This document shows positions 1,388-53,094 of a stretch of 64,000 nt of DNA, in pieces. The translations under genes were made by a program, and so were the position numbers. The stretch comes from Eledone cirrhosa (Eukaryota): the NCBI GenBank assembly GCA_964016885.1, contig OZ024743.1, positions 314,278,001-314,342,000 of the forward strand. The letters run 5' to 3'. Each line of letters starts with the position of its first letter. Positions within the stretch are counted from its first letter, which is position 1. The notes below the pieces were generated by a model, which worked only from the letters and a program-made list of their open reading frames with translations, searched no databases and was not told where the DNA came from.

Positions 1388-2051
1388 AGCTATTGCTCGC
1401 ACCAACCGGAGGTATATGATTTTTAAAGCAATGAAATACCAATGAAGGTTGGAAAATCACTGACGAAGGACTATTTTTATCATATGTAACACATGTGCAA
1501 TCACGCAGTATTCTTTCTTCTCATGTTTTTTATATATAATTTCTTCAGCTGCGTTTGTCTGTTTCTCTCTTACTGCTTCCCCGCTCTCTCTGTTTCTCTC
1601 ACCTTCTTTCGCCCCCTCTGTCAGTTACACTTTATCTCGACTGGCCTCTTCCTCGCACTTCCACTCACTCACTCTCTGTTTCTCCCCTTCTCACTTCCTC
1701 CCGTTTGGCCTGTAGTGGGTTCTCTTCTTGCTCACATCTCACTCACGTCGGAAGGTCTGTATATCTCTCTCGCTCATGAAATCCACCCAGCTTAAGCTGA
1801 CCGGATTCCCATGCTGCTTGTTTTTTCCTATCTTTGCGTTGCTATCCTTGCCTGTTGTTTACTGTCTCGCTCGCTTTACGCGATTTACTTGTCCCAATAG
1901 CTTTATTTAGCTATTGCTCGCACCAACCGGAGGTATATGATTTTTAAAGCGATGTTATACCAATGAAGGTTGGAAAATCACTGAAAAAAGGACTATTTTT
2001 ATCATATGTAACCCATGTGCAACCACGCATAATTCTTTCTTCTCATGTTTT

Positions 2052-10099: not shown

Positions 10100-10485
10100 A
10101 TCTGGTTGTTCCCTTTTTCTCTCTTGTCTACGATTTTACAGAACTTATGTTCACCGAATTCAGGGACTAGACTCCTTCTTCCTCCCGTTTGACCTGTGCG
10201 AAATTCCTTCCTTGCTCACATTTCGACTAGGTTTGATGGTCTTTATTCTCTCTCGTTCACGATTTCACCGAATTTATATTCATGGAAATCTGGGACTTGA
10301 CTCTTTCTTCCTCACTTTCCGTTGCATTACCATCTTTGTTTGTTTAGTCTCGCTCCTTCCCCTTATTTACGTGTCCCAACGACTTTTTTTAGCCGTTGCT
10401 CGCACAAACCAGAGGTATATGGTCTTTAAAGCGATGAAATACCAATGAAGGTTGGAAAATCACTGATGAAGGACTAACTTTATTC

Positions 10486-29117: not shown

Positions 29118-29195
29118 ATCACCCAGACAGCTTGCTGCTGTTTCACAATATTAATTGTGAATAGAATTACCAATTCTTGCTCATCAGTGGGTGAT
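29118..29195 (-). ncRNA. Canonical type I hammerhead ribozyme (family G, copy 1)
   Basis: AUCACCCA CUGAUGA GCAA..UUGU GAAACAGC agcaa GCUGUC UGGGUGAU; 8-bp stem I, GUC site. Confidence 0.85.
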
Positions 29196-32230: not shown

Positions 32231-32308
<78 letters not shown>

Positions 32309-32314
<6 letters not shown>

Positions 32315-33863
32315 TTGTAGCTCTGAAATAGCAATATATATATGGATGTAAATATAATGTATTTTGCAATACACTTTATGCTTAATTAAAAGCATTTTGA
32401 AGACCGTAAGCTATTGTTTTAAAGTAGTGACAAATTCACTCAATTCGATCTCAGCAAACAGGAGGAGATAAGCCGACATGACATGTTTCGCTTTTGTTGA
32501 AGCTTATCAAGGCCAACTACCCCGCCCGTCTGCTGAGATCAATGATGTTATATTCTTATAGAAATCTAGTAAATAATCAGGAGCTGATTATGCAGAGCGG
32601 TTGTTGGTCAGGCAGAAATTAAAAATTAGAATTGTAGCTCTGAAATAGCAATATATATATGGATGTAAATATAATGTATTTTGCAATACACTTTATGCTT
32701 AATTAAAAGCATTTTGAAGACCGTAAGCTATTGTTTTAAAGTAGTGACAAATTCACTCACTTCGATCTCAGCAAACAGGAGGAGATAAGCCGACATGACA
32801 TGTTTCGCTTTTGTTGAAGCTTATCAAGGCCAACTACCCCGGCCGTCTGCTGAGATCAATGATGTTATATTCTTATAGAAATCTAGTAAATAATCAGGAG
32901 CTGATTATGCAGAGCGGTTGTTGGTCAGGCAGAAATTAAAAATTAGAATTGTAGCTCTGAAATAGCAATATATATATGGATGTAAATATAATGTATTTTG
33001 CAATACACTTTATGCTTAATTAAAAGCATTTTGAAGACCGTAAGCTATTGTTTTAAAGTAGTGACAAATTCACTCACTTCGATCTCAGCAAACAGGAGGA
33101 GATAAGCCGACATGACATGTTTCGCTTTTGTTGAAGCTTATCAAGGCCAACTACCTTAAAACAATAGCTTACGGTCTTCAAAATGCTTTTAATTAAGCAT
33201 AAAGTGTATTGCAAAATACGTTATATTTACATCCATATATATATTGCTATTTCAGAGCTACAATTCTAATTTTTAATTTCTGCCTGACCAACAACCGCTC
33301 TGCATAATCAGCTCCTGATTATTTACTAGATTTCTATAAGAATATAACATCATTGATCTCAGCAGACGGGCGGGGTAGTTGGCCTTGATAAGCTTCAACA
33401 AAAGCGAAACATGTCATGTCGGCTTATCTCCTGTTTGCTGAGATCGAAGTGAGTGAATTTGTCACTACTTTAAAACAATAGCTTACGGTCTTCAAAATGC
33501 TTTTAATTAAGCATAACGTGTATTGCAAAATACATTATATTTACATCCATATATATATTGCTATTTCAGAGCTACAATTCTAATTTTTAATTTCTGCCTG
33601 ACCAACAACCGCTCTGCATAATCAGCTCCTGATTATTTACTAGATTTCTATAAGAATATAACATCATTGATCTCAGCAGACGGCCGGGGTAGTTGGCCTT
33701 GATAAGCTTCAACAAAAGCGAAACATGTCATGTCGGCTTATCTCCTCCTGTTTGCTGAGATCGAAGTGAGTGAATATGTCACTACTTTAAAACAATAGCT
33801 TACGGTCTTCAAAATGCTTTTAATTAAGCATAAAGTGTATTGCAAAATACATTATATTTACAT

Positions 33864-33866
<3 letters not shown>
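32309..33866. repeat. Family H: 317-bp tandem units (~2.7 copies) followed by an inverted block (~2.3 copies)
   Basis: TTAGAATTGTAGCTCTG at ~32309, ~32626, ~32943; inversion at ~33155; near-identical units; (TA)n flanks. Confidence 0.92.
33381..33424 (+). ncRNA. Hammerhead with U3-A8 core (also 33695-33738 +; 32471-32514, 32788-32831, 33105-33148 -)
   Basis: GGCC TTGATAA GCTT caacaa AAGC GAAACATG T CATGTC GGCT. Confidence 0.72.
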
Positions 33867-33931
<65 letters not shown>

Positions 33932-33974
33932 CTATCTGTCTATCTATCTATCTATATATATATATATATATATA

Positions 33975-34830
33975 TGAGAGACGTAAAATAAGAAAATTAT
34001 AAAATTAACTTACTTACTAAAATATCACTTCCAACTAATTAGTTTCTGGAATGGAATTAATATATTTTCTGAAGAAAACATTGAGAATCATTCCGTCGTC
34101 AGGGAAGACTATTCTCATCTAAGTATCCAGGCAAAGCGGGGACTCTGGAAACTTATTAAAAAATAATTCAGTGGATAGAAAATAGCAAAGCGTGGACTGA
34201 ATTCCTAGCCATTGAGAAAATCACTGCCTCTGCGTCGGTGGCAAATTCAAAAAGATTCAATCACGTGACATCGAGGTCAATCAGTGGAAAGTGGTTTGCT
34301 AATAAGACAGCGGCCTGCCTGCTACCATAGCAGCAGTCATGGCCAATATTGCTCGACAAATAATTTGGAGATAATTATAAAGAATTAATATCTAGTAACA
34401 TATATATACATACAGATGCATATCAATGCTAGCAAATATATAGGTTTTGTCTTAGTAACCTTTCTCAATGGCTAGGAATTCAGTCCACGCTTTGCTATTT
34501 TCTATCCACTGAATTATTTTTTAATAAGTTTCCAGAGTCCACGCTTTGCCTGGATACTTAGATGAGAATAGTCTTCCCTGACGACGGAATGATTCTCAAT
34601 GTTTTCTTCAGAAAATATATTAATTCCATTCCAGAAACTAATTAGTTGGAAGTGATATTTTAGTAAGTAAGTTAATTTTATAATTTTCTTATTTTACGTC
34701 TCTCATATTATTGTTCTGCAACCCCATGCATTGAACCACAAAGTTACTAAGACAAAACCTATATATTTGCTAGCATTGATATGCATCTGTATGTATATAT
34801 ATATATATGTTACTAGATATTAATTCTTTA
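33975..34830. mobile_element. Family I pseudo-LTR fold-back (~240-bp arms)
   Basis: 33975-34215 is the reverse complement of ~34462-34706; second pair ~34378-34458 / ~34743-34830. Confidence 0.8.
34573..34652 (+). ncRNA. Canonical type I hammerhead (mirror copy 34028-34107, minus)
   Basis: CTTCC CTGACGA C GGAATG..CATTCC A GAAACTAATTAGTT GGAAG; perfect stems I and II, palindromic ACTAATTAGT. Confidence 0.8.
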
Positions 34831-34904
34831 TATATATATATACATCTATATGTATATATATATATATATATATATACATCTATATGTATATATATATATA
34901 TATA

Positions 34905-35860
34905 AATGAAAAGTTAGAAATTGAAGCCAGGACTATCTGTCATCAGTGGTCTACTAGCCATCATGGGTATTTTTTCGCATTACAGACCATATACCTCAGG
35001 CTAGGGCGATGTAATAACTAAAATAAGTTATTCGAATAAAAAGAGTTGGGTGGAGAAAGAGAGACAGGTAAACAAATACGAATCGTGAGGTAACGTAAAG
35101 AGAAGAAAAAATGAGAAAATCAAGTCAATAATTCATTTTGAACATAAGAACGTGCGAATATTGACGAGAAGACGAAAGACACATCTTGGCCGTGCGAATA
35201 TGAGCGAGGAAAGAATTTCCTAGGAGTGTGAGACGATGGAGGAAGTGATAGAGAGGGTGAGTAGCAGAGAGTGAGTGAGTGAAAATGTGAGGAAGAGGTT
35301 AGACGAGAGAGTGTGACTAGCAGAGGGGGTGAGTGAAAGTAAAGGGGAGAAGGAGAGAGAAAGAGGATAGCAGTAAGGGAAGAGGAAAAGACAGGTCACA
35401 GCGAAGGGGAAAGCATATATGAATGAAAAATGGCTAGCTGTGTTGTTACAAATAGGATATCTATGAAAATGAAGAATTAGAAATAGAAGCCAGGACTATC
35501 CGTCATCAGTGGTCTACTAGCCATCATAGGTATTTCTTCGCATTACAGACCATACACCCCAGGCTAGGATGATGCAATAACTAAAATAAGTTATTGGGAT
35601 AAAAAAGAGTTGGGTGGAGAAAGAGAGACACGTAAACAAACACGAATGGTGAGGCAACGTAAAGAGAGGAAAAAAATGAGAAAATCAAGTCAATAATTCA
35701 TTTTGAACATAAGAACTTGCAAATATTGACGAGAAGGCAAAGACACCACTTGGCCGTGCGGATGTGAGCAAGGAAAGAATCTCGTACGGTGTGGGACGAT
35801 GGAGGAAGTGATAGAGAGGGTGAGTAGCAGAGAGTGAGTGAGTGAAAGTGTGAGGAAGAT
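34905..35860 (-). mobile_element. Family J partial tandem (~563-bp period), related to family K
   Basis: GAAGCCAGGACTATC.GTCATCAGTGGTCTACTAGCCATCAT at ~34923 and ~35486. Confidence 0.75.
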
Positions 35861-36227
35861 GCTCATCAATATAAATTTAAAAGGAAATCATTTACCTAGA
35901 CACATGAAATTTCATGAAAATATATATTTTACATATATTGGCTGAAGGGAATGGTTACGTGGTGAGCAATTTCCAACATACATATCTCCGCCTCGTTCAT
36001 TTGAAATATTCCCAAAACATACCAACATGCTGAAATAATTCTCCTAATCTGCCAAATATTTTTAACTTAGCTGCCAGCATTTTTTCCACAAAATGTCAAA
36101 TTTAGTTTGATGGCCTGTCATTCCTTACGATTTTCTAACTCTTCAGTTATGATCTCTAGGTTATATTATACAATCAATCTGGGCTATATTATTATCTGTT
36201 GATTACTGCAGTTAGTAATAATGTATT

Positions 36228-43643: not shown

Positions 43644-43999
43644 GAATAGAATGAAATGAAATTTCATTTCTCACTCTTAGTACGGCACTTACTTTTTGTT
43701 CAACACTGACACAGCACCGATGTACTAGTTTCAAGCTTGTTAGCTATCGTCAGCACCGTATACCCTTCTGCCAGATGGTTGAACGTTCGAAAGTATATAC
43801 TTTCCTATGAAAATTAACGGCTGAGTAACCTAATTTGAATATCGAGTGATTTCAGTCGGTCAGGTGCACCGAAAACGATAAAATGGAATAGAATGAAATG
43901 AAATTTCATTTCTCACTCTTAGTACGGCACTTACTTAAATTTAAGTATGTATGTATACGTACATACATATATGTATACAGACGTAGAGCAGCATGTATA

Positions 44000-53051: not shown

Positions 53052-53094
53052 GTCAAAGTTCTTTCATCACACATTCTGTGACCTCTTCAGTGAC
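53052..53094 (-). ncRNA. Minimal hammerhead in a nested remnant
   Basis: GUCA CUGAAGA G GUCACA gaaug UGUGAU GAAAG AA CUU UGAC. Confidence 0.6.

Follow-up and report, generated by a model that had tools for sequence, protein, structure and literature searches.

A 563-bp mobile repeat of Eledone cirrhosa carries a predicted permuted hammerhead ribozyme with an opened core and a K-turn

The family J insertion and its two motif copies

The window, i.e. the whole stretch of 64,000 nucleotides of Eledone cirrhosa DNA that was analysed, contains an insertion of a repeat family designated J (Table 1). Its two units are 90.6% identical and spaced by 563 nt. The unit body is non-coding and pyrimidine-rich with a longest open frame of 91 codons, and no ORF was found in family J, including none with the N-terminal GIY-YIG and C-terminal RT of autonomous Naiads.

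The original prediction had placed two minus-strand motifs with the spacing of a second repeat family, K, at 34940-35015 (copy 1) and 35503-35578 (copy 2). Both were recovered at these places, 563 nt apart, with CUGAUGA at 34946-34940 and 35509-35503 respectively, while each motif turned out to extend about 22 nt further in the 5' direction and 6 nt further in the 3' direction. A private lesion had been described for each copy, and both were confirmed: G12 is replaced by A at 34973 in copy 1 and a K-turn A by G at 35559 in copy 2. At both positions the family majority has the intact letter in DNA contigs from two read runs (kind unrecorded, one sample, possibly the assembly's own source; used for family-majority letters alone). 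Additional lesions were identified at 35570 and 35569 (stem II 5' strand) and at 35555 (stem III, where a G-U pair is kept) in copy 2, and at 35035, 35033 and 34938 (all breaking P0), 35012 and 34965 in copy 1. Owing to the change at 35012, the strand given as UUGCA for the third helix actually reads UUACA in copy 1. Altogether, K-turn and stem II are damaged in copy 2, and G12 and P0 are lost in copy 1. The window copies are decayed and probably inactive; selection acted on the source lineages and is reflected in the covariation described below, and the window locus is a fossil.

Other hammerhead-like repeats are present in the window. Positions 32308-33875 hold a 317/314-bp tandem array plus an inverted half with a type I-like motif, in which UUGAUAA replaces CUGAUGA, and at 33972-34708 each arm of a perfect 248-bp inverted repeat contains a CUGACGA core. 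Further repeat families with CUGANGA cores were seen at 889 (+), at 43753 and 44245 (-), at 53090 (-), at 29187 and 29698 (-) and at 530 and 63477 (-), some of these families being clearly type I hammerheads of PLE ends. Among the 150 of 195 Rfam matches listed there was no hammerhead match at the two J copies, and only weak HH9 matches at 32.4-33.8 kb.

Table 1. Features of the family J locus and of related motifs in the window
Feature	Position	Strand	Remarks
Family J insertion	34894..35863	-	About 1.7 units of the 563-bp repeat; 5'-truncated partial tandem; ends in (TA)n
(TA)n tract at the insertion end	34790-34904
Upstream motif copy (copy 2), P0 5' strand to P0 3' strand	35497..35600	-	Ribozyme-like; core letters intact
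P0 5' strand UAUCC	35596..35600	-	Pairs with GGAUA (35501-35497) directly after the core
Optional hairpin Px	35574..35595	-	Loop UAUUUU, 8 bp; missing from family M
Stem II 5' strand (family UCGC, here UCAU)	35569..35572	-	Supplied from upstream; partner GCGA before GAAA
P2 5' strand (CUAGCC) and K-turn non-bulged strand (family UGA)	35559..35567	-
Block S: stem III strand, U16.1, H17 (35553), stem I 5' strand	35546..35558	-
Predicted cut	between 35553 and 35552	-	Placed by hammerhead numbering
UAA linker and block G (stem II 3' strand, GAAA, stem III 3' strand)	35529..35545	-
K-turn bulged strand (box C-like AUGAU), P2 3' strand, stem I 3' strand, CUGAUGA	35503..35528	-
3' terminal motif copy (copy 1)	34934..35037	-	Ribozyme-like; G12 lost at 34973
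Unit that two cuts would release	34990..35552	-	563 nt; predicted
Family K motif copies	1396-1474, 10399-10477, ~1917-1995	+	Third copy degenerate

Covarying helices, opened core and K-turn

Read from 5' to 3', the motif presents the site (S), GAAA (G) and CUGAUGA (C), which is the block order of type SGC hammerheads. A canonical type I reading was rejected, as no GAAA follows CUGAUGA, and when all letters of the hammerhead core could be assigned, HDV, twister, pistol and hatchet were no longer considered. A pattern in which the core letters (K-turn letters included) and the spacing were fixed gave 12,829 exact matches in the E. cirrhosa genome and none for the reversed control, and a DNA search yielded 2,569 first-look candidates. 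From fetched loci, 148 distinct copies were sorted into subfamilies and nine majorities (J, K1, K2, M, F4, F5, F7, F8 and F9) were compared; the remaining clusters were splinters of M, one misregistered pair and 24 singletons.

Stem III is paired at all five positions and stem I at five inner positions in all nine majorities. P2, the helix beyond the K-turn, is paired in 8-9 of the nine; F8, the exception, becomes fully paired when shifted by one base. In an alignment of 18 genome copies, 91.9% of the cells are paired, with both partners changing in 18 of 24 pairs; slid-structure controls were paired at 32-47%, and 0-1 of 500 shuffles matched the result, a count that cannot be taken as a probability, given that the copies share ancestry and also served to derive the structure. 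When ten metagenome copies were aligned with eight genome copies, pairing reached 91.2% of the cells, both partners varied in 20 of 24 pairs, and the covariation was 0.805 as compared to 0.273 after shuffling. P2 is 96% paired with changes on both sides in five of its six pairs, and the UAA linker is near-invariant. In both alignments CUGANGA, GAAA, U-H and the A15.1-U16.1 pair are invariant or near-invariant, the latter being U-A in 18/18 aligned copies. Given the 12,829 matches against none, the shuffles and the alignment with metagenome copies, a chance arrangement is excluded.

Three covarying helices around a retained core had been proposed originally. Two of them are as claimed against the window K copies at 1409 and 10412 (+), with CUAGCC/GGCUAG replacing CCAACC/GGUUGG and UGGUCUG/UAGACCA replacing UGAUUUU/AAAAUCA. 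The third was probably assigned in the wrong register, and the list missed P0, Px and the 10.1-11.1 pair. The pairings did not collapse in the larger alignments, where the covariation is stronger and the hammerhead core invariant. Stem I, stem III, P2 and, in the register adjacent to P2, stem II covary, so that covariation of helices between diverged families around an invariant hammerhead core holds in the aligned sequences.

J copies are about 95% like their majority, and five of 44 sampled copies are whole, i.e. have core, K-turn and all four helices. Among J copies the mismatch is lower in the core than in the flanks, which carries no weight as evidence because the copies had been picked by the core pattern. 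Further diverged subfamilies were seen at L225 near 6095 (-), L221 near 1046 (-) and L157 near 1500 (+); that of L225 has a covarying P0 (UUUUCC/GGAAAA) and lacks P2 and the K-turn.

The bases following CUGAUGA form helix P0 with the 5' end of the motif rather than pairing with the strand that precedes GAAA. The third pair of P0 is A-U in J, F5 and F7 and G-C in K, M, F4, F8 and F9, and up to 12 of 12 positions of P0 are paired in a motif linked to RLE-type LINEs (see below). RNAfold returned P0 with Px, or P0 alone, in four of five sequences, P0 failing in the damaged copy 1 alone; MFE z-scores of nested parts were weak (-0.5 to -1.9). The 5' strand of stem II is supplied from upstream. In the register adjacent to P2 (UCGC/GCGA in J) it forms 4-5 of five pairs in 9/9 majorities, with 83-84% of the cells paired in the alignments, and this register is the sole one in M, F4 and the metagenome and RLE-linked motifs. 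Hence the universal stem II strand probably lies 4-5 nt further 3' than was originally proposed.

The 10.1-11.1 pair is present in eight of the nine majorities as U-A, A-U or G-U. J is the one subfamily with an unpaired 11.1 in the sampled majority (C.A in 33/44 copies); position 10.1 of J is U, which allows pairing, at 69-72% of the DNA-contig depth, a depth that may include sister subfamilies. Among 62 genome copies, the base after A9 can serve as partner of 11.1 in 46 and the upstream strand in 17, both being available in 14 and neither in 13, and in metagenome copies the upstream strand is the partner in 10/11. These counts can be read as a junction that slides by one pair at 11.1. We infer that the core is opened between A9 (after CUGAUGA) and stem II, where P0 with or without Px would form a three- or four-way junction. 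In type SGC block C is uninterrupted, the stem II 5' strand beginning within 1-2 nt of CUGAnGA; in the motif at most one pair is contributed by the base after A9 and the rest comes from upstream. Since stem II is mostly upstream and the 3' strand pairs in P0, the motif falls outside the definition of block C and would work like an SGC hammerhead without membership as defined.

The junction between stem III and P2 consists of a 3-nt bulge and tandem GA steps and is box C/D-like in J. The GA letters are invariant or near-invariant on both strands and were demanded by the search pattern, and the K-turn is intact in 34/44 J copies. Position pair 3b.3n, which the pattern fixed only by half, is U.U in 39, U.G in 13, A.G in four and Watson-Crick in one of 62 genome copies, and C.U in five, A.G in four and Watson-Crick in two of 11 metagenome copies. 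Thus, at the sequence level the junction has the 3-nt bulge, the G.A and A.G pairs and the mostly non-Watson-Crick 3b.3n of a K-turn. A Watson-Crick 3b.3n blocks ion-induced folding while 3n=G or 3b=C permits it (McPhee et al., 2014; PMC4382518), and the letters found here appear in line with this; a U.U K-turn may need protein for folding (PMC5689011). How stem III could be linked directly to the I/II helix was left open by Eckert et al. (PMC10085705), and the K-turn would provide such a link.

Naiads and RLE-type LINEs as carriers of the fold

Tandem motifs were found at 15/30 and inverted copies at 5/30 J loci, and J has two 3' end points 42 nt apart, corresponding to a 42-nt tail. Naiads are described as leaving partial tandems, inverted 5'-truncated copies, a 30-40 bp tail and (TA)n targets (Craig et al., 2021; PMC8557442). 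J shows the same marks, with partial tandems, inverted 5'-truncated copies, a tail of about 40 nt and (TA)n targets. In that study Naiads are reported without a canonical hammerhead, with only 'HHR_core' and 'HHR_half_core' matches that fit no descriptor.

The 54 Naiad consensi of File S5 of PMC8557442 were parsed by eye around each CUGANGA displayed there, a procedure that overlooks any motif interrupted by a line break. The split S-G-C fold was recognized in 11 of them (Obim, Ovul, Esco, Amil, Aacu, Anas and five others) and type CSG in six, all of the nematode section (Nbra-2, Nbra-3, Hcon and three others). The same by-eye parse around the displayed motifs found no hammerhead fold in the bivalve, spider and horseshoe-crab Naiads. 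By eye, the published Octopus Naiad ends have the K-turn strands, the 13-nt spacing and the Px loop letters of J and K, and family M has the core letters of the Octopus Naiads and ends in -TTTGAAT like the Acropora Naiads. Several Naiad ends of the arthropod section (File S5, parts 16-19) show CUGACGA or CUGAAGA after a C run, with no hammerhead order parsed; they may represent another permutation or ribozyme.

Within the E. cirrhosa genome, intact Naiad ORFs or Naiad ORFs joined to the motif were not found, and only broken Naiad-like RT pieces were obtained. A protein search for Naiads gave 115 broken matches, and 73 loci scanned contained no joined motif; a search with the Naiad DKA motif led to one old family, and a pattern with the spacing of the published Octopus Naiads matched ten genome positions, none of them Naiad-linked. 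The Naiad remnants are 68-77% alike as compared to J copies that are about 95% like their majority, so that mobilization of J by the Naiads detected seems precluded by their age; the autonomous partner of J was not found in this genome. L221 was considered as a motif-joined Naiad and rejected as a separate insertion.

A GIY-YIG search gave 150 matches; C-terminal-EN elements accounted for all 20 that were retrieved together with their flanks. Several of these 20 have type I hammerheads, and the J or K copies close to them were separate insertions. Uninterrupted C-terminal-EN Penelope-like ORFs of 938, 844 and 1096 codons were seen at L134, L135 and L136, which, judged from their reading frames, are possibly still active.

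The fold was also searched for in metagenomes with a pattern that specified no pairing but demanded the J/K spacing. Matches were obtained at 27 loci; at 15 of them the four helices are all present, written in new letters and accompanied by P0 and Px, and the other 12, without the helices, were dropped as chance. Six of the metagenome motifs, with K-turn, lie directly after the stop codon of an ORF encoding a reverse transcriptase, a zinc knuckle and an endonuclease. Pfam RVT_1 and zf-RVT scored below cut-off in this ORF, CCHC and PD-(D/E)xK motifs are visible, and its homologs are R2-named and occur in fish, molluscs and amphioxus. This RLE-type LINE probably belongs to the HERO clade. A metagenome contig (L270, 897-975, +) has a perfect fold with long P0 and Px and no recognisable adjacent retroelement ORF.

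When the E. cirrhosa genome was searched with the metagenome RLE endonuclease, the split-core fold was found right after the stop codon at 21/30 RLE loci. The original assignment to a Penelope-like context is supported via the Naiads, but the fold is not confined to PLEs. The RLE loci are at a median 95.8% like their majority and similar in age to J. Their motif has the fully paired 12/12 P0 and differs from J in letters and spacing, ending in CACACAAC. J does not share its 3' end with the RLE element of this genome, no match to the RLE loci was found for the J body, and inverted motifs occurred at 0/30 RLE loci as compared to 5/30 J loci. The young RLE-type LINE family at L275-L299 (e.g. L285:1949+) combines the split-core fold and its 12-bp P0 with a non-standard K-turn-like loop, and the loci L285 and L294 run directly into a next copy. 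The HERO clade itself is described in PMC4640811.

Proposed mechanism, competing readings and related systems

Taken together, these results make it probable that J is a 563-bp mobile repeat, likely a non-autonomous Naiad derivative, with a predicted permuted hammerhead that would cut tandem transcripts once per unit. In the proposed mechanism the 5' part of the RNA would supply stem II, with the base after A9 or the upstream strand as partner of 11.1. The K-turn would turn the chain back from stem III, allowing P2 to connect the distal ends of stems I and II and to take over the role of the loop I-loop II contact. If a tandem transcript were cut twice, an RNA of unit length would be set free; its ends would remain paired, which would favour its ligation to a circle of 563 nt; circularization has been reported for type I retrozyme RNA (Cervera and de la Peña, 2020; PMC7229834). 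An RT-endonuclease acting in trans would then copy the RNA into (TA)n, giving insertions whose 3' end is constant and whose 5' start varies. Release of the 563-nt RNA is plausible for family J and unlikely from the window locus, since copy 1 lacks G12 and copy 2 is damaged in stem II and K-turn.

Some J elements are longer than one unit, and 5' starts occur all along the unit without enrichment at the predicted cut: one of 20 (TA)n junctions starts there, and two of 43 starts lay within 3 nt of it, one of them spurious. Such elements fit a circular template and an uncut multimer equally. A wider reading, which we put forward tentatively and with slightly less than even confidence, is that an active module was passed between Naiad PLEs and RLE-type LINEs. 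It would constitute a seventh natural hammerhead topology, with the core opened by a branch-migrating junction and a K-turn integrated into its framework, its unit-length circle-ready RNAs would explain the partial tandems shared by both, and through the box C/D-like K-turn its cleavage might be controlled by a host protein of the L7Ae family.

J and K might instead have been moved in trans by the RLE-type LINE or by the intact C-terminal-EN Penelope-like elements, and not by Naiads. With RLE copies about as young as J the RLE-type LINE is a real rival driver: the same topology at 21/30 loci, the two head-to-tail cases at L285 and L294, and metagenome RLE elements with the exact J/K spacing and K-turn all speak for it, as do intact PLE ORFs of 844-1096 codons in a genome whose Naiad remnants are old. 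We nevertheless consider this unlikely, as the RLE motif of this genome departs from J in letters, spacing and terminus and lacks inverted copies, the identical metagenome spacing follows from the search pattern itself, RLE loci contain nothing that matches the J body, and the intact PLEs carry type I hammerheads.

Quite unlikely, in our view, is a fold that is real and non-catalytic in J, serving as a recognition or priming structure for the RT or depending on a host protein at the K-turn. The catalytic letters are invariant across the majorities and two retroelement classes while the stems vary freely, and U10.1 dominates in contig depth; the C.A at 10.1-11.1 in most sampled J copies, the prevalence of U.U at the K-turn (39/62 copies), elements that often run through the predicted cut and 5' starts that ignore it are the observations that such a structure would account for.

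As to stem II, the originally proposed third helix UUGCA/UGCGA pairs 5/5 in J but is not general and overlaps the conserved hairpin Px. This upstream register (UUGCW) is fully paired (5/5) in J, K1 and F9, the three subfamilies in which the adjacent one ends in a mismatch; window copy 2 preserves it and has the adjacent register disrupted. It drops to 4/5 in K2, F5, F7 and F8 and to 3/5 in M and F4, competes with Px and is absent from the metagenome and RLE-linked motifs, so that its use, or a switching of the RNA between both registers, appears very unlikely. An ordinary type SGC hammerhead with stem II from the bases after CUGAUGA, or a chance arrangement, is hardly credible: the S-G-C order and the one pair possible after A9 in most octopus-type subfamilies would suit the former, but the bases after CUGAUGA pair in P0, the covariation of which already refutes this reading, and not before GAAA, and the pattern and covariation controls exclude the latter.

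The predicted permuted hammerhead of J would have several implications. Non-circularly permuted hammerheads were previously known only from metatranscriptome RNAs and one bacterial candidate; if the reading is true, they are present in tens of thousands of animal genomic copies and the block rule that limits hammerheads to six orders is broken. It would also explain the apparent absence of hammerheads from Naiads, a gap noted and argued from by their describers, and type CSG would grow from two sequences to a family. The K-turn is a concrete candidate answer to the geometric puzzle of Eckert et al. (stem III to the I/II helix), and the occurrence of the same module on PLEs and RLE LINEs makes a role of the 3' ribozyme in partial-tandem insertion directly testable.

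In the literature covered, with subscription journals and Repbase Reports outside its scope, we found no permuted hammerhead in Naiads, RLE LINEs or cephalopods, no K-turn hammerhead and no paper joining hammerhead, K-turn and retrotransposon. The terms 'kink', 'k-turn', 'octopus' and 'mollusc' gave no matches in the supplement of PMC10085705, and PMC13725137, in its accessible part, only cites Eckert et al. Other insertions into hammerhead cores are listed by Perreault (2011).

Among the closest known systems is HRIMA-1, a type SGC ribozyme with the same four helices and a 3-nt I-to-II linker that cleaves (PMC10085705). Both have the S-G-C order, a full core, pseudoknotted stems I, II and III, a linker of about 3 nt and helix 'I' joining the far ends, the counterpart of which is P2 in J. 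In type SGC, however, stem II comes directly after CUGAnGA, with 0-1 additional U, and the beginning of the chain is at stem III, whereas J has P0 and the optional Px at its opened core and ties stem III to the 'I' helix on both strands via the K-turn. The examples of Eckert et al. (2023) came from soil metatranscriptomes. Their type CSG, represented by two sequences, proceeds as in J from the stem II 5' strand through the 'I' helix to block S, but has block C whole at the 5' end. The box C/D K-turn (PMC4382518) shares with J the 3-nt bulge, the tandem G.A and A.G pairs and a non-Watson-Crick 3b.3n, while that of J lies inside a predicted ribozyme arm.

Among mobile elements, Naiads (PMC8557442) have the insertion marks of J and, in Octopus, a 3' motif that by eye looks homologous, while J encodes no protein. 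RLE-type LINEs share the split-core fold, microsatellite neighbours and head-to-tail copies with J; their RT and endonuclease are unrelated to those of the proposed PLE source, and letters and 3' end differ from J. Non-LTR retrozymes (PMC7229834; 10.64898/2026.07.22.740005), which are thought to derive from PLE ends, are like J non-coding tandem units with one ribozyme each. They carry type I hammerheads in units of 170-400 nt, in contrast to the non-circular order and 563-nt unit of J, and published retrozyme searches would miss the J fold because type I models were used.
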